From NCBI GenBank assembly GCA_965219955.1, contig OZ244799.1:2880001-2944000 (forward strand): 64,000 nt of DNA. Reading direction: 5' to 3'. This DNA comes from a bacterium (GTDB taxonomy: Bacteria > UBA8248). Of the stretch, positions 16,337 to 51,219 are shown in pieces. The first letter of the stretch is position 1, and the number at the start of each line of letters is the position of its first letter. The translations under genes were made by a program, and so were the position numbers. Below the pieces are notes generated by a model that saw only the letters and a list, made by a program, of their open reading frames with translations, had not been told where the DNA came from and searched no databases.

Positions 16337-16462
16337 CGGTTTTATCCTCCAAGGGTAATCGTCCTGGCGATTCAGTCGCGATGAAACAGTCGCGAATCAT
16401 CATGTCAAGAAAGCCCGCTGTTGCGCCTCCGCTTGTTCCGGTTCTCGGGATGCGAGCGTATA

Positions 16463-16873
16463 TTAAAGAGCCTCCGGGTTCTCGCACAACTCGATGCGGA
16501 TATTGCCGGGTCCTCTGACATAGGCGATCATCCGCCCGCCAACCCCGCGGCGCACGGGCTCCACCATAATCTCCGCCCCCTTGCCCCGCAGCCACTGGAC
16601 GGCGGCTTCCACATCCGGAACGCCGAACCCGAAATGATCCAGACCCTGAACCAGTTCCGGCCCCACGGAATCCGGCGACTCCTCGGGTCTGAGGCCGCGC
16701 GCGAATATCACCAGGCGGCCGATTCGGATCGCCGCGTTGGGCGAGCCCTTGAAGTCCTCATCGTAGCGAATGATTTCAGCGTCGAACACGTTTTCGAAAT
16801 ACCCGGCAAACGCCTTCACGTCGGCGCAAACGTAGTGAATATGATCAAAACCGAATTCCATCGAATTCTCCAA
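16463..16873 (-). CDS. VOC/glyoxalase family protein
   Basis: FDHIH, GLDHFGF.V.D, AYVRGPGNIRIEL. Confidence 0.88.
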   Translation of the reverse strand: MENSMEFGFDHIHYVCADVKAFAGYFENVFDAEIIRYDEDFKGSPNAAIRIGRLVIFARGLRPEESPDSVGPELVQGLDHFGFGVPDVEAAVQWLRGKGAEIMVEPVRRGVGGRMIAYVRGPGNIRIELCENPEAL

Positions 16874-16881
16874 ATATGAGA

Positions 16882-18591
16882 TTACGGCGTGATGATGATC
16901 GGCGAATCCTCAGAATCGGTATCTTCCGGAACACCGCCATCCTCGACGTTCTCTTCCTGCATTTCCCCTTCCCCGCCCTGAGACTCCCGAACCTGCCGGA
17001 TAACCCGCTCGAGCATCACGTTGATGGAATACTGGAACATTTCGACGAATAACGGCGCGGGCTCATCCGTATCCACCCGCATTTCATCCGCCAGCGTCAC
17101 GCATTCCCGGGCCATCGCTTCATCGCCCGCCTGATGGAAAACGTACCCGTTGTCTTCCAACTGGCCCGATATGCGCTCCCGCAACGCCGCATCCTCAAAA
17201 CTATCTTTCGCGCCGTTTTCCACAATCTGCTGAAGACGCTCTTTTTTCTGTCTTTCATCCAGCGCCACCTGACTTTCCATCGACTCCAGAAATTCCTGAA
17301 AATACGGCGCCACGAGCTCTTCATCCATCACCCAACTCCAAAAAGGCCGGTGGACGAATATCGTGCGCACTTCCATCCGTTTCTCGCCTTCCGCAAGAGG
17401 ATTCACCATCGCGCGGACAGGATGCGGGCCCTCCGCGGGATACCCCTCAGCCTCCGACAACGGATCGAGCATGAGTTTCGCATGCGTAAAGCCGCGTGGC
17501 AGCGGCGTTTCTCCCATTTCGTTTTCGCGCTGGCCGCGTTCCAGAAGCCAGATCGCATATCCGGCAGGCACCTCCTGTGAGGCCAGAGTGGGCATTTCTG
17601 AAATTCGGCGGAAAACATCACGCAACTCTTTCCCGCTCATTTCCGCATCGGTGAACTCAACGATGCCTCGTCCCCGGTGCAATCGCGCCTGCACGAGATA
17701 CCTTCCCCGGGGAACCCTCGAGCGGGCGAGCCACAAAAGCATCTGCCCGCGCCCGTCTACGGCACTGACTACGGCACGAACATAGTCAGGGTAATTGGCT
17801 CGCTGCGCCGTGCGAACACCCGTATCGGGTAATTTTTCAACTTCTACGCCCTTGTTTTTCAACCGGAACAACGCTTTGCGAATTCGGGACAACGTATCTT
17901 TGTCTTTCGTGGATTCCGAGAGCTTTTGAAGCGCAATCGCGGCCTCCTGCGTAGCCATATCCGCCAGAATCTGAATGAAATACTCAGGCGGCAATATTTC
18001 TGTTTGGGCCATCGCTTCAGCCAGAACAAGCGCACAATCCGCCGAAACGCCATCCGAATTCACAAGGCCGTCACGCAATGTCACTTCCTGCAGAAAAGGA
18101 GGCAGGTCTTTCAACGACGATACGATGGACTTTGCGGAATCAAGCGTGAGAATCGTATTCCCGCCGAGTTGTTCGGAAACATCCCGGGCCCGGCTTAAAT
18201 TTTCGCTATCGAAACCCACCGGCAATTCTGCATTCGCATCCAATGCCTGAAGCGTCTCGTAGAGCGTCGTGAGTCCCGGTATCGACCAGCGCATCGTCCG
18301 GATCAGAGAAACAAGCTTTTCGACGATGGATGGATTGTTCAACTCGCGCAGGGCGAGGAGCGTGGGAATACGACCCTCTGAAGTAGTGGAGGACAGGTGG
18401 TTCAATACACCGGCGAGCCCGACCTCCCCCATTTCCCTGATTTCATCCAAAAGAGGCGCCGGCGCCATGGCGCCCGGCGGAGCCGGCACGGTAAACGACG
18501 CTTCAAGGCCGGCCGCTACGGCGGCGGCCCGGTTCAAATCCTCTTTCGAAAAAGTTTTTTTCGAGGCTTTCATCCTCGCTTTCTTCGCCAA
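16882..18591 (-). CDS. Conserved hypothetical helical protein
   Basis: 569-aa ORF; IRKALFRLK and SAVDGRG..LW motifs; acidic tail. Confidence 0.75.
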   Translation of the reverse strand: MAKKARMKASKKTFSKEDLNRAAAVAAGLEASFTVPAPPGAMAPAPLLDEIREMGEVGLAGVLNHLSSTTSEGRIPTLLALRELNNPSIVEKLVSLIRTMRWSIPGLTTLYETLQALDANAELPVGFDSENLSRARDVSEQLGGNTILTLDSAKSIVSSLKDLPPFLQEVTLRDGLVNSDGVSADCALVLAEAMAQTEILPPEYFIQILADMATQEAAIALQKLSESTKDKDTLSRIRKALFRLKNKGVEVEKLPDTGVRTAQRANYPDYVRAVVSAVDGRGQMLLWLARSRVPRGRYLVQARLHRGRGIVEFTDAEMSGKELRDVFRRISEMPTLASQEVPAGYAIWLLERGQRENEMGETPLPRGFTHAKLMLDPLSEAEGYPAEGPHPVRAMVNPLAEGEKRMEVRTIFVHRPFWSWVMDEELVAPYFQEFLESMESQVALDERQKKERLQQIVENGAKDSFEDAALRERISGQLEDNGYVFHQAGDEAMARECVTLADEMRVDTDEPAPLFVEMFQYSINVMLERVIRQVRESQGGEGEMQEENVEDGGVPEDTDSEDSPIIITP

Positions 18592-46108: not shown

Positions 46109-46486
46109 TTGAGCAGAAAAATTCGAATCACCACAGGCAACGTAAGCATGGAAGCCGAACTCGCGCAGAGCGAAACCGCGAACGCCTTCTGGGAGGCCTT
46201 GCCGATCACCGGCTCCGCGAACGTATGGGGCGAGGAAATCTATTTTCAGGTTCCCGTAGACGCGCCTCTTGAGGATTCCGCGCGCGAGGAGATGGAAGTC
46301 GGCGAGATCGCCTACTGGCCGCCCGGCAGCGCATTCTGCATCTTTTTCGGCCGCACGCCTGCGAGCGTGGACGAGGCGCCCCGCGCGGCGAGCGCCGTGA
46401 ACCCGCTGGGGAAAGTGAGCGGCGACCCGAAAGATTTCCTGGGCGTCCGCTCGGGGGAGGAAGTGCGCCTGGAGAGAGCATCGTGA
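46109..46486 (+). CDS. Cyclophilin-like fold protein
   Basis: WGEEIYF, GEIAYWPPG.AFCIFFG.TP.S. Confidence 0.85.
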   Translation: MSRKIRITTGNVSMEAELAQSETANAFWEALPITGSANVWGEEIYFQVPVDAPLEDSAREEMEVGEIAYWPPGSAFCIFFGRTPASVDEAPRAASAVNPLGKVSGDPKDFLGVRSGEEVRLERAS

Positions 46487-47736
46487 ATTCCGGTGAGCCG
46501 AAAGACGTCTCCGTCCTCATCCATTACGACGAAATCGGGCTCAAGGGGAAGAACCGCCCGCTGTTCATCGAACGCCTATCGAAGCGGATCGAGCGCGCGG
46601 CCTCTTTATTCTGCGAGGCGAAGGTCAGGAAACGCACGGGAAGGCTCGTTCTCGAAACGAGCGGCCTGAAAAATCCCGACGCCCTGATCACGGCGCTCAG
46701 GAAAGTGTTCGGCGTGGCCTACTTCGCCCGTGCGCGAAGCGTTCCGCTCGACCCCGGCGCGGCGTCAGAAACGGCGCTCGAAATGATCGCTCCCCTCAAG
46801 ACCGATAGCTTCCGCGTCCGTACCCGGAAATCCTTCCCGGCCACGCCCGTCAGCACGCGGGAGTGGGACAGGGCCATCGGCGCCGCGATCCAGGCCAGAA
46901 GGCACCTGCCGGTCGACCTGGATCGCCCCGGCCTCACGGTGCACGTCGAAGTGATCCCCAAAGAAGCCTGGGTGTACGCCGAGAAAATCCCCGGCCCCGG
47001 CGGCCTGCCCACCGGCTCGCTCGGAAAGGCGGCGGCGCTTCTCTCGGGCGGCATCGACTCCCCCCTGGCCGCCTGGCGGGTCATGAAGCGCGGCTGCGAG
47101 GTGGTGTTCATCCATTTTCACGGCGCGCCCTATCTCAGCCGCGCGTCCGCCGAGAAGGCGAAAGACCTGGCCGGCGTGCTGAACGGCTACCAGCTGGGGA
47201 GCAGGCTCTACATGGTCCCGTTCGGCAACCTGCAGAAAGAGATCGTCCTCGCCACGCAGCCCGAGTACCGCGTCGTTCTCTACCGCCGGTTCATGACGCG
47301 CATCGGTGAGCAAATCGCCGGGCTCGAGAACGCCCGCGCCCTCGTCACCGGCGAGAGCCTGGGGCAGGTGGCGAGCCAGACGCTGCAGAACCTGGCCGCC
47401 ATCGAGGACGCGGTGATGATGCCGATCCTGAGACCCCTGATCGGCATGGACAAGGACGAGATCATCGAGGGAGCGAAAGCGCTCGGCACGTTCGAGATTT
47501 CCATCGAGCCCGACCAGGACTGCTGCTCGCTGTTCGTGCCCAAGCACCCCGCCATCCGCTCCCACGCGGGCCACCTGCGCGGGCTGGAATCGCGCCTGCC
47601 CGTCCGGGAGATGATCGAGAAAGTCATCGGCGAGACCGAGATCATCGATTTCGAAGCAGACGGCCGGACAAGCAATCATTCCTTCGCCGAGATTCATCCG
47701 GCTGAGGTGGAGGCTGCGGTCGCGCCGGAAGCGTAG
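46483..47736 (+). CDS. thiI: tRNA 4-thiouridine synthase
   Basis: EIGLKGKNR, GGLPTGS, LLSGGIDS, TGESLGQVASQT, DCC. Confidence 0.96.
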   Translation: MNSGEPKDVSVLIHYDEIGLKGKNRPLFIERLSKRIERAASLFCEAKVRKRTGRLVLETSGLKNPDALITALRKVFGVAYFARARSVPLDPGAASETALEMIAPLKTDSFRVRTRKSFPATPVSTREWDRAIGAAIQARRHLPVDLDRPGLTVHVEVIPKEAWVYAEKIPGPGGLPTGSLGKAAALLSGGIDSPLAAWRVMKRGCEVVFIHFHGAPYLSRASAEKAKDLAGVLNGYQLGSRLYMVPFGNLQKEIVLATQPEYRVVLYRRFMTRIGEQIAGLENARALVTGESLGQVASQTLQNLAAIEDAVMMPILRPLIGMDKDEIIEGAKALGTFEISIEPDQDCCSLFVPKHPAIRSHAGHLRGLESRLPVREMIEKVIGETEIIDFEADGRTSNHSFAEIHPAEVEAAVAPEA

Positions 47737-48449
47737 GGGCGGTTCGCGAACCGCCCGTTTCCCCGACAGGTCGCGACCCCGGACAGGCACAGAGGCCTGT
47801 CCCTACGCCCCGCGTTTCGCAACGAACCCGTAGGGGCGGCCCTCCGTGGCCGCCCTTAACAGAGGATAAAGGCAACCCCCGCAAAAAAGGATCAACTCCC
47901 CCCTTGAGGGGGAGTCAACGAGGCAAGGGCGAAGCCCGCAGGCGAGTTGGTGGGGGGAGCTTTTTCTGTGGCATGTCCCCCCACCGAATCGGCCTTCGCA
48001 CAAACCGCTCGGCCTCTTCGACTCCCCCTCAAGGGGGGAGTTGATCTTGCTCGTGCATCGGGGTTTTTTTACCCCCCTGACAAGGGGGGTAGGGGGGGTT
48101 ATTGCCTTGCCGAAGGGATTGTAGGGGCCGCATATATGCGGCCCGTCGCAGGGCGGCGAAAAATCAGGGTCGCATGTATGTCGGACATGTATGTCCGACA
48201 TACACACCGCTCCGTTCTTCCCGGCCAATCGGGCGGACACGTCGGTCCCCGGACAGGTCGCGGCCTGTCCCTACAGCAACCACGCAAATCGCAACGAACC
48301 CGTAGGGGCGGTTCGCGAACCGCCCGCTTCTCCGACAAGGGCCGTTCACGAACGGCCCCTACGGCGGCTGCGGCTTTCCATCGTCATTCCGGGGTTCAGC
48401 GCTACATGAAGGGCCGTCATCCGCATCTATGTCCGGTGCAGGAATGACG
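47733..48449. repeat. Repeat mosaic (GTAG REPs, family B 47895-48041, family C, degenerate family A 48382-48449)
   Basis: Module-by-module matches to other intergenic mosaics. Confidence 0.88.
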
Positions 48450-48486
48450 GCGGTGGTCGGTTATGACCGAAATGGTTTCTTGATAT

Positions 48487-48675
48487 CCGATAATTGTCGT
48501 TATCAGACAATATAACACCTCTCAAAACCATGTCAAGCGCAATTCCGGGGTCCCGGGAGGAGTTTTCGGGCGCCGTTTTCCGTCTTTTTTCGCCCATTTG
48601 CGGCCCCCGCGCGCCCCGGAACGGGTCTCCCGGCGGAGAACGGGGCTTCCGGCGTCCCGTAACGACAATTAGCGG
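48487..48675. promoter_or_regulatory. Candidate invertible promoter segment bounded by 16-bp inverted repeats
   Basis: CCGATAATTGTCGTTA (48487-48502) and TAACGACAATTAGCGG (48660-48675), 15/16 with a perfect 12-bp core. Confidence 0.55.
48509..48536 (-). promoter_or_regulatory. Sigma70-type promoter pointing away from the lipoprotein gene
   Basis: Minus strand TTGACA-N16-TATATT with TG-n extended -10. Confidence 0.65.
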
Positions 48676-48921
48676 CGGGCAGGCCGCTCGCCTATGGAGA
48701 CCGAGAAAGGTGCGCGCATGCCTCAGGGGTTCGTGTGTCGCGGAAAGACTAATACCAGCCCGGACGATGAGGCCGCAAGTCTGCCGTCCTCCGGGCTGGC
48801 CGAAATACGAATGACCAGTTTGTGAAGGCCCGAAATAAAAGCTCACGAAAGGAGGTTAATCGGAGAAAGCCGGAAATTCACTGAAAATCCCTTTTTCTAT
48901 GTATTCAGGAGGACTCACTAA

Positions 48922-51219
48922 ATGAAGTTCAAACACAAGTATATTCACAAGTTCTACGCTTTCGCGCTGGCGGCGGTTTTCGCGCTGACGCTGGCGGGCT
49001 GCGGCGGAGGCGGCGGTAGCGCCACGACGCCGGAACCGCCGATGACCGGCCCGACCGACGCCGAGAGAATAGCGGACGCGCAGACGGCGGCCATGACGGC
49101 GGCCGGAGTGGCTGCTGCGGCCCTGGCGGCCGTGGAAGCGAATCAATCCGCCGATCTCGATTCATACATCAGGGCGTCAATCGCGAACGATAACGCTCAG
49201 GCCGCCCTGGAGGCCGCGAATGCCGCCACGACCCCGGCGGCAGCGGAGGCCGCGCAGGCCGATGCGGAAGCCGCAAGTGCCGACGTGCAGAAATACGCCG
49301 GCATGGTCACGACCGCGCACAATGCGATGGAAGCGGCCAGAATGGAATTGATGGCGCTCAACGATGCCCGGGCAGCCGCCATGGAAGCCTACATGGACGC
49401 GAAGGCCGCGCTCGATGCGATCGCCGGTCAGGGTGACGCCGACTCCGCGTCATACGATATGGCTGTGGCCGCGCTGGCCGCCGCGTTGATGGCGAATGAT
49501 GCGGCCCAGGCCGCGGAAACGTCCGCGGACGCGGAAGCCGCTCAGGCCGATGCGGAAGCCGCGCTGGCCGATGCCATGAAATACGCCGGCATGGTGACGG
49601 CCGCGCACATGGAAGCGACTGCGCTCTCGACCGCGCAGGGGGCCGCCATGCAGGCGTACATGGACGCGAAAGACGCGCTCGCGGCCGCGGCGGCGAATCG
49701 TGATTCCGACCCGGCTTCCTACGATGCCGCTCAACGGGCTCTGGGTGTTGCGGAGGAAGCGAACATGGCTGCCCAGGCCGCCACCACTTCAGAAGCAGCG
49801 GAAGCTGCTCAAGCGGATGTGGAAGCCGCCAGTGCTAACGCTGTGAAGTATGCCGGCATGGTGAATCAGGCGAAGGCGGATGCGGATGCAGCTGCAGCTG
49901 CTGCCAAGGCGCGAGCGGCTGCCAACAAGATCGCAGGAACAAAAGAAGCAGCCATCTTAGCAGAAAGTGATCCCGATGCTGCCACTGCCGCCGCTAACGA
50001 TGTGAGGCCGTTTGATGGTGGCACCGCAATAGCAGATGGCACTACAACATCAGACCCAGCTGCTACCACCATGTATGAACTTACAGTTAAGCACGATGGA
50101 ACCATGTCAACTGTTGAAGTTCGTGACGAGAGGAACCTTCGTAAAGGCGACCCGAAGTTTTCCAGCGTGGCAAGGTTTGGCGATGGTCAGATGCTTGTCA
50201 GGGATAATAGTGGAACCAGTCGGGAGATCATCGTCCTGCACACGGATATAGAGGCTGATACCCCGACTGCGTTCTCCAAGGTTCATACTTTGGATGCAAA
50301 CGACGACCCGGACACCACTGTAGTGGATAACAAGTCATTGACTGTCGCGACTGGTGGTACTGTGACAACAGGTCTTTCAGTAGGGGATATTGATTTAGGC
50401 ATACCAGCACCTGGAGAAGATGCTACCTCAGAAAAAACATTCGCTGAGGACAATGGTGAAACACCAGCTGTCAATGAGGGTATGCACAGAGGCCGCTTCG
50501 ATGGTGCGATGGGAACATATCTGTGTGTCAATACTAACGGCTGTGTTGTAACAGTTGATGACGAAGGCAAAACCACAGCAGTGACGGGAACATGGACGTT
50601 CACTCCAGACGCCGGAGCCACGGTTGATGTTGCGGATGCTGACTACATGTACTACGGCTTCTGGCTGGACACCACAACCAAAGATGGTGCAATTGCTTCC
50701 TATGACACCGTTCAGACATTTGCTGGATCGCCCCTTGCTGCAACTAGTGCAACCCTTACTAGTGTGACAGGACAAGCGGATTACAAGGGCGGCGCTGCGG
50801 GTGTCTACGTCCACAACACGGTTAATCCAGATTCGACTGATGATGTTAAGTCATCTGGAAGATTTACCGCAGATGTGAATCTGAATGTACAATTTGGAGG
50901 CGCTCCTCCGAATCGTGTCGCAAATTCAATCAGGGGAAGCATCTCCAACTTTGTTCTGGAACACAACGAACCACAGAATTGGTTTGTCGATATTAGGTCG
51001 CAAGTAAGTGCTAGTTTTGGTCTTGACCAGACAAATACACGAGTCAGATCTGATGGGAACGACGGTTCCATTACAGCCCAGTTCCATGGTACAGCCGCTG
51101 ATATATCCGACGCTAACGATGGATCAGTTTTAGCTCCTCCGCCCGTTATTGTTGGCGAGTTCAACGCCACCTTCGACGACGGAAGCGCTGCCGGCGCGTT
51201 CGGCGCGCGGAAGCAGTAG
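48922..51219 (+). CDS. Surface lipoprotein: Ala-rich helical repeats plus TbpB-like C-terminal barrel
   Basis: AGGAGG RBS, lipobox LAGC followed by GGGGGS, three ~90-aa repeats ending KYAGMV, Y.GGAAG.Y motif and C-terminal GEFNA.F..G..AGAFGA. Confidence 0.85.
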   Translation: MKFKHKYIHKFYAFALAAVFALTLAGCGGGGGSATTPEPPMTGPTDAERIADAQTAAMTAAGVAAAALAAVEANQSADLDSYIRASIANDNAQAALEAANAATTPAAAEAAQADAEAASADVQKYAGMVTTAHNAMEAARMELMALNDARAAAMEAYMDAKAALDAIAGQGDADSASYDMAVAALAAALMANDAAQAAETSADAEAAQADAEAALADAMKYAGMVTAAHMEATALSTAQGAAMQAYMDAKDALAAAAANRDSDPASYDAAQRALGVAEEANMAAQAATTSEAAEAAQADVEAASANAVKYAGMVNQAKADADAAAAAAKARAAANKIAGTKEAAILAESDPDAATAAANDVRPFDGGTAIADGTTTSDPAATTMYELTVKHDGTMSTVEVRDERNLRKGDPKFSSVARFGDGQMLVRDNSGTSREIIVLHTDIEADTPTAFSKVHTLDANDDPDTTVVDNKSLTVATGGTVTTGLSVGDIDLGIPAPGEDATSEKTFAEDNGETPAVNEGMHRGRFDGAMGTYLCVNTNGCVVTVDDEGKTTAVTGTWTFTPDAGATVDVADADYMYYGFWLDTTTKDGAIASYDTVQTFAGSPLAATSATLTSVTGQADYKGGAAGVYVHNTVNPDSTDDVKSSGRFTADVNLNVQFGGAPPNRVANSIRGSISNFVLEHNEPQNWFVDIRSQVSASFGLDQTNTRVRSDGNDGSITAQFHGTAADISDANDGSVLAPPPVIVGEFNATFDDGSAAGAFGARKQ

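Follow-up and report, generated by a model that had tools for sequence, protein, structure and literature searches.

This locus raises the question of whether a short DNA segment, bounded by inverted repeats and lying upstream of a lipoprotein gene, is inverted by recombination and in this way switches transcription of the gene. It lies in a window (the whole stretch of DNA that was analysed) of 64,000 nucleotides from a 4.28-Mb bacterial genome. The initial annotation had described 16-bp inverted repeats, matching at 15 of 16 positions and sharing a perfect core, that enclose 157 bp. A repeat search and shuffled sequences bear this description out: the arms at 48487-48502 (CCGATAATTGTCGTTA) and 48660-48675 (TAACGACAATTAGCGG) are 16 nt long, 15/16 (94%) complementary and 157 nt apart. 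Their perfect 12-mer core, TAATTGTCGTTA (48491-48502 and 48660-48671), occurs exactly twice in the window, once per strand, and two or more matches are reached in 0/100 dinucleotide-preserving shuffles. The complete genome holds no additional exact copy of the core, just two unrelated matches with one mismatch. The elements of the locus, with the interpretation developed below, are the following:

46483-47736, thiI (PF02568, E 4e-68)
47891..47919, minus strand, strong hairpin of 13 pairs with a T-run, between the switch and thiI
48481..48512, putative left recombination site, lox-like: outer 13-bp arm 48481-48493 (TGATATCCGATAA), spacer 48494-48499 (TTGTCG), inner 13-bp arm 48500-48512
48503..48659, candidate invertible interior of 157 bp, conserved from end to end across the family (59-copy alignment) and reverse-complemented in seven related copies
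48509..48536, minus strand, sigma-70-type promoter TTGACA-N16-TATATT with an extended -10 (TG), matching the consensus at 11/12 positions
48568..48595, plus strand (opposite to the promoter), tentative terminator-like hairpin with a T-run, weak in the window copy
48650..48681, putative right recombination site: inner arm 48650-48662, spacer 48663-48668 (CGACAA), outer arm 48669-48681
48682..48921, plus strand, leader from the switch to the start codon, with conservation between paralogous lipoprotein genes over its final ~95 nt, ribosome-binding site included
48922-51219, plus strand, lipoprotein gene presumed to be controlled by the switch (765 aa, lipobox LAGC, Ala-rich N-terminal part)

The repeats noted at first are thus nested within larger sites, 48487-48502 in the left one and 48660-48675 in the right one, and the right spacer is the reverse complement of the left spacer.

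The presence of a promoter inside the segment, on the minus strand, beside the left repeat and with an extended -10, had also been claimed, and a promoter scan agrees. TTGACA-N16-TATATT at 48536..48509 is the sole sigma-70-like site on either strand of 47600-49100, the plus strand of this region having none (shuffle mean 0.4 sites). It lies 6 nt from the core, the inner arm of the left site extending into its -10. In the window it faces a stretch of REP-like repeats and then the 3' end of thiI, with the lipoprotein gene behind it. Among the minus-strand ORFs toward thiI, none has a Pfam match and no short ORF is credible, in keeping with the earlier statement that no credible gene lies in the firing direction. 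Inversion had been expected to place the start site at the right repeat, at the beginning of the lipoprotein leader. This also holds: the right repeat stands where a long leader begins, and 246 nt separate it from the ATG of the gene. The fold of the leader RNA is no better than that of shuffles (z -1.28).

The 1.2-kb gap between thiI and the switch (window 47740-48400) is full of REP-like palindromic units (e.g., 48300-48364), pieces of which, 24-65 nt long, recur more than 100 times around the genome. A scan of 47500-49200 against Rfam returned no family, only spurious matches of miRNA models on the REP-like palindromes. Immediately outside the left site, a stretch of 223 bp (window 48262-48484; G000:C1:4271072-4271294, where G000 is the window's own genome) is 97% identical between the two orphan copies of the segment in this genome, which exceeds the conservation of the cassette (~90%); the promoter in its present orientation reads into this stretch, where no ORF is evident. 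The hairpin at 47891..47919 has a folding energy of -19.9 kcal/mol (z -3.4; equalled by 0/200 shuffles) and would end a transcript from the promoter before its antisense entry into thiI. The hairpin at 48568..48595 folds with -7.9 kcal/mol (z 0.5) in the window copy and with -14 to -16.5 kcal/mol in two relatives. The same terminator-like element occurs at loci L017, L015 and, flipped, L021, and a T-run is present in 52/59 copies. In the present orientation this hairpin faces upstream read-through and, speculatively, may block read-through into the cargo gene.

The segment is not unique to the window. A DNA search with window 48400-48960 finds a block of ~485 bp, bounded by the left repeat and the start codon, again elsewhere in the same genome and in relatives of the same genus, and whole-genome blast finds four copies of the repeat-to-repeat segment in the window's own genome. 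A pattern search in which every match was fetched yields 59 complete copies in 12/23 genus genomes, plus one copy truncated by a contig end; this census is a lower bound, as the patterns demand the -35 block and TAA/TTA, which leaves decayed copies under-represented and passes over a diverged one in G020. The copies per genome, counts that are not independent since the genomes are kin, are:

G000 (own), 4
G002, 16
G012, 16
G003, 6
G011, 4
G016, 3
G018, 3
G021, 2
G005, 2
G008, 1
G014, 1
G017, 1

The genus consists of sponge-associated metagenome-assembled genomes (MAGs), and some records of cassette-bearing genomes are titled 'MAG: Nitrospinota bacterium'; the public runs that contain the window stretch are sponge, marine and coral metagenomes. 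Invariance of the -35 and of TAA/TTA across the copies follows by construction from the search pattern. The -10 is TATATT in 34/59 copies, TG is present in 57/59, and the end of the -10 lies 6 nt from the core in 57/59. When 185,579 species genomes were searched with the exact promoter block, all 47 matches (47/47) fell within this MAG group. An orientation-neutral junction pattern gave three matches and no cassette in a metagenome scan; on genome contigs it gave 16, comprising 10 cassettes (all OFF, in the sense defined below) and 6 chance matches. The diverged cassette of G020 (L044 2061-2251) has 16-nt repeats 159 bp apart and a degenerate promoter, TTGACG-N17-TAGAAA, facing a recombinase gene that has its own TTGGCA-N16-TATATT promoter.

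Evidence for inversion comes from comparison of these copies. A copy is called ON when its promoter reads into the leader and the cargo gene and OFF when it reads the other way. Both outer flanks read NCGG, so that flank patterns do not separate the two states, and orientation was called instead from cassette-independent context, with the leader block or the beginning of a cadherin-type gene marking one side and homology to the recombinase the opposite side. By this approach 7 of the 59 copies are ON, 49 are OFF and 3 are not callable, neither marker being present in their fetched flanks (flank signatures suggest OFF for two of these). The ON copies are:

L096, L099 and L102, in G002
L113 and L119, in G012
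L107, in G014
L143, in G005

Each of these has unchanged flanks around an interior that is reverse-complemented precisely between the 12-bp cores. Four relatives, which appear as split blast matches, have window-like flanks (...CCGA-TAA on the left, TTA-RCGGCGG... on the right) and a promoter that reads into the leader and the lipoprotein gene. One of the ON copies belongs to a decayed locus (L024/L143, G005:C304 ~16400-17700): 2 in-frame TAG stops interrupt its recombinase gene, and the conserved ribosome-binding site is not followed by a start codon. A maximum-likelihood tree was built from the interiors, a short tree with weak support for most of its branches; explaining the ON state on it takes 6 changes, of which well-supported branches force at least 3. 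The ON label is unclustered on this tree, 117/500 shuffles being as low, and this absence of clustering is what repeated flipping, and not a single old event, predicts. One orthologous locus in two orientations was sought between G002 and G012; there the similarity is confined to a module of 1-2 kb, from which orthology is not establishable.

At the window locus itself only OFF is seen. Contigs (Logan) from 4 runs of at least 3 studies bridge the sites or the whole segment in OFF only, and no strand-change joint is listed in the contigs of runs X17, X1, X2 and X4, a result that is uninformative on minority forms. Such contigs drop minority forms, so that present switching of the window copy is neither shown nor excluded by them. 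All eight copies (8/8) are OFF in G000 (4) and its closest relative G011 (4), including the G011 ortholog of the window copy. The earlier reading, a promoter inverton in the OFF orientation with its recombinase encoded elsewhere, is nevertheless sustained by the occurrence of both orientations among homologues, by breakpoints at the cores, by covariation of the arms and by adjacent recombinases.

The covariation of the arms gives information on the process that maintains the sites. Every core has the form TAA-N6-TTA, and 23 different cores are found among the 59 copies. Two perfectly matching arms are present in 58/59 copies, the remaining copy having 1 mismatch, against a mean of 2.33 differing positions for arms drawn from separate copies. 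None of 10000 random re-pairings reaches 58 perfect pairs, the maximum being 12. Since N6 is unconstrained by any search pattern, the matching of the arms is not built in. Judged from these comparisons, a match within the locus combined with divergence between loci has the character of a product of strand exchange across a homologous overlap, unlike that of an operator or a transposon end. The four arms of the 59 copies (two outer, the promoter-side inner and the distal inner) share the consensus T(-13), C(-7), Y(-6), G(-5), A/C(-4), TAA, from which it follows that each site consists of two inverted 13-bp arms around a 6-bp spacer. The spacer on the promoter strand reads Y-R-D-Y-A-A, and the promoter-side arm covers the last four bases of the -10. 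Both cores of the window are perfect (12/12) and its arms agree with the family consensus. The idea that the same inverted repeat would precede paralogous lipoproteins is therefore right about the cassette and wrong about the exact repeat, each locus having its own 6-bp spacer.

The initial annotation had also proposed to look for the repeat near a recombinase, and a Cre-like gene does adjoin many copies, including two elsewhere in the same genome. PF00589 is matched 23 times in this genome (20 above the cut-off), PF00239 by just one gene, at 2638437-2638880. Half of the genome's own cassettes (2/4) have a divergent PF00589 gene directly upstream:

G000:C1:~1631623-1632609, tyrosine recombinase (PF00589) gene beside a cassette
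G000:C1:3300512-3301576, tyrosine recombinase (PF00589) gene beside a cassette

The two proteins are full-length and 68% identical to each other, with PF00589 matches at E 2e-18 and 7e-18 (67.4 and 65.4 bits, cut-off 27.1). Among proteins of solved structure, Cre is the closest (E 1.7e-15, with residues 96-350 aligned to Cre 45-319), its chains making up the top 17 PDB matches, and the R..K..HxxR..W..Y residues align with those of Cre in the motifs LLRVSE, RSKTD, GHSLRVG, GRW and GRY. At the level of sequence the enzymes and sites thus resemble a Cre/lox system, a distant resemblance and not orthology. The NCBIfam models for Xer and for FimB/FimE-type invertases have cut-offs that the pair misses by a wide margin (NF007371, 25.5 and 27.1 bits against 222; NF007370, 17.2 and 16.4 bits against 221), and a FimB/FimE-type DNA invertase was ruled out on these scores. 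A serine invertase system of the Hin/Gin kind was likewise rejected: the sole PF00239 gene is ~290 kb from the window copy and beside no copy.

Across the family, recombinase homology is found within ~530 bp of 39/59 copies, divergent and always opposite to the leader side; some of these neighbours, including several in G002, are N-terminal remnants only. Homologues at E <= 1e-30 are present in 13/22 genus relatives, and the recombinase is present in 12/12 cassette genomes. Among the 11 genus genomes without a pattern-defined copy, 9 lack the recombinase, G020 has a full gene by its diverged cassette, and G022 contains a fragment. Outside the genus, MAG-encoded recombinase relatives (L042, L053, L056; 45-75% identical) have no TAA-N6-TTA pair upstream. 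The window copy is an orphan, with neither a recombinase nor a remnant upstream. In G002 the orphan copy L021, which has no recombinase homology within 7.5 kb, is ON, and this is consistent with action in trans.

Taken together, it is probable that the window segment is a genuine switchable member of an inverton family. In the mechanism proposed, two inverted lox-like sites would bracket 157 bp that hold one strong sigma-70 promoter, 6 nt from one of the sites. A Cre-like tyrosine recombinase would pair the sites, exchange strands within the spacer and flip the segment. In the OFF state transcription would head into repeat DNA that holds no genes, pointing away from the lipoprotein gene; a flip would bring the start site to the right site, and transcription would then cover the 246-nt leader together with the lipoprotein gene. 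The promoter of the segment would presumably be the main promoter of this gene. The window copy is presumably flipped in trans by one or both of the paralogous recombinases encoded beside two other copies in the genome.

Among the alternatives, the nearest to this reading is a fossil or locked switch, in which the family is a true inverton family and the orphan copy no longer flips (e.g., no recombinase reaches it), leaving the lipoprotein gene silent or under an unrecognised promoter. Exclusive OFF in the contigs of 4 runs and in the G011 ortholog, the lack of an adjacent recombinase or upstream remnant, and the existence of decayed loci such as G005:C304, with its 2 TAG stops and no start codon after the ribosome-binding site, all agree with such a loss. 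We nevertheless regard it as unlikely, since the 12/12 cores, the consensus-fitting arms and the 11/12 promoter are intact, two full-length recombinase paralogues reside in the genome, the G002 orphan copy is ON, and the contigs are blind to minority forms. That the segment flips by the action of some other recombinase, either a further PF00589 gene or the single serine recombinase, appears very improbable: the genome offers many candidates (20 PF00589 matches above the cut-off and the PF00239 gene), but adjacency and divergent orientation of the Cre-like gene are conserved in 39/59 copies, and recombinase and cassette co-occur across the genus. Moreover, Hin/Gin-type sites have a 2-bp crossover, and inverted arms around a matched 6-bp spacer fit tyrosine enzymes instead.

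The two remaining alternatives dispense with site-specific inversion. Operator sites, the scenario by which the initial annotation would have its own reading refuted, or an RNA stem, in DNA that never inverts, would account for the single orientation at the window locus and for a left-site palindrome that overlaps the -10 in operator-like fashion. The seven homologous copies with a reverse-complemented interior and breakpoints at the cores make this scenario highly improbable; in addition, operators of one regulator would be conserved between loci, not locus-specific yet matched within the locus, and a transcript from the internal promoter holds just one arm. A MITE-like mobile promoter cassette with terminal inverted repeats, inserted either way round, has a next to negligible probability. 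Its ends would share one sequence, not 23 matched pairs, and every context-callable copy sits between the same type of leader and the recombinase side, the repeated unit being the whole module and not the cassette alone. The short, multi-copy and repeat-bounded nature of the segment is what such an element shares with it, but no target-site duplication is visible by eye at the window copy.

If the segment is a switchable promoter, its target in the window is a lipoprotein whose N-terminus, MKFKHKYIHKFYAFALAAVFALTLAGCGGGGG, contains the lipobox. Searches of Pfam and NCBIfam gave nothing above the cut-offs, sequence and profile searches of the PDB gave low-complexity matches only, and none of its 198 homologues is named. 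For the C-terminal part, neighbour clusters in the ESM Atlas carry PF01298 (TbpB_B_D) or PF08794 (FHBP_C), with scores of 0.91-0.92, and weak matches to PF01298 (E down to 0.001) occur in 2/45 relatives of the lipoprotein. The C-terminal part is therefore predicted to be probably TbpB/fHbp-like. The genome has one SlipAM (Slam translocon) gene (G000:C1:2998776-2999645, 94.8 bits), which lies outside the window, ~67 kb past the lipoprotein gene, and the product is likely a candidate Slam-type surface lipoprotein. The 3' half of the gene (window 49850-51200), which encodes the conserved C-terminal part, has 46-55% G+C, against 61-71% in the 5' half.

All four cassettes of the genome precede paralogous lipoprotein genes, the products of which have a nearly identical signal peptide and lipobox and mature parts that are 28-68% identical; a second lipoprotein gene follows 3 of those 4 paralogues. 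The leaders of two paralogous copies (G000:C1:4270507-4270811 and 3301975-3302342) contain an extra ~350 bp that is absent from the window copy. A fifth lipoprotein paralogue (G000:C1:2359139-2359232; L020 ~1501-1594) keeps the 95-nt end of the leader without an invertible cassette, so that some promoter besides the switch must serve at least that paralogue. Units related to the extra leader DNA are repeated upstream of it. Switchless paralogous lipoprotein genes are also found in G013 and G020. Because such paralogues exist, the conserved end of the leader may hold a promoter missed by a simple scan, and OFF need not mean silent. Cargo is not restricted to lipoproteins: G002 also has cassettes ahead of genes for large proteins that combine a long signal region with cadherin-like and fibronectin-III domains (L028-L032; G002:C1 near 705k, 4230k, 1996k, 2557k and 1262k), and several of these loci retain only the N-terminal recombinase remnants mentioned above.

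At the two recombinase loci of the own genome, the OFF-state promoter points into the recombinase gene, and no other sigma-70-like promoter is found between the switch and that gene. Being the sole sigma-70-like site upstream of the neighbouring recombinase, the OFF promoter may feed the switch's own enzyme. A tentative extension is that the family forms a self-wired two-way toggle, in which the promoter would drive the surface-protein gene one way and the flipping recombinase the other way, giving a state-dependent switching rate. Enzyme bound to the arm that overlaps the -10 could damp its own promoter, locus-specific spacers could prevent recombination between the 4 to 16 switches of a genome, and a small set of Cre-like enzymes could govern many combinations of lipoproteins and cadherin-like adhesins on the cell surface of a sponge symbiont. 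This extension is possible but is considered doubtful as a whole.

A literature search found no paper on such switches in sponge symbionts or Nitrospinota; the main text of the DeepInverton survey (PMC11602134) mentions neither sponge nor Nitrospinota, and these MAGs may be among those in its predicted sets. Provided that the switches are active, the uncultured symbionts would vary up to 16 surface proteins per cell line, a variation that would bear on persistence inside a filter-feeding host. Under the toggle, if true, the surface repertoire could act, for example, against host phagocytosis or phages. The family is also a source of naturally occurring Cre-like enzymes, whose sites are short and come with many mutually matched spacers.

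Promoter inversion is a well-established route to phase variation in gut bacteria and pathogens. In Escherichia coli, fimS is a short promoter segment between 9-bp inverted repeats that is flipped by the adjacently encoded tyrosine recombinases FimB and FimE and controls a surface structure. The system described here shares with fimS a flipped promoter segment, tyrosine recombinases, of which there are two paralogues, and a surface target. In contrast to fimS, the recombinase is Cre-like and not of the FimB/FimE type, the sites are lox-like (13-6-13) where fimS has repeats of 9 bp, a genome has 4 to 16 copies and not a single one, and the OFF promoter faces the recombinase gene.

In Bacteroides fragilis, many invertible promoters per genome, with a conserved cassette, precede surface-component genes and are acted on, partly in trans, by Tsr tyrosine recombinases and the serine recombinase Mpi. 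Multiple cassette copies upstream of surface-component genes and, presumably, recombinases acting partly in trans are common to both systems. The present family differs in phylum (records titled Nitrospinota), in recombinase subfamily, in the matched 6-bp spacers that belong to each locus, and in its lipoprotein and cadherin-like cargo.

The Cre-loxP system of phage P1 provides the closest solved relative of the recombinase, with aligned catalytic residues, and like the present sites loxP has inverted 13-bp arms around an asymmetric spacer that is matched between partners. The loxP spacer is 8 bp long, and the system serves in plasmid dimer resolution. Here the relationship to Cre is distant (E 1.7e-15), the spacer is variable, 6 bp long and set in TAA-N6-TTA, the arm sequences are, we take it, unrelated to those of loxP, and the sites form inverted chromosomal pairs for gene regulation. 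The principle is thus known from fimS and Bacteroides; what differs is the combination of a Cre-like recombinase, lox-like sites with locus-matched spacers, up to 16 copies per genome and an uncultured sponge-associated host.
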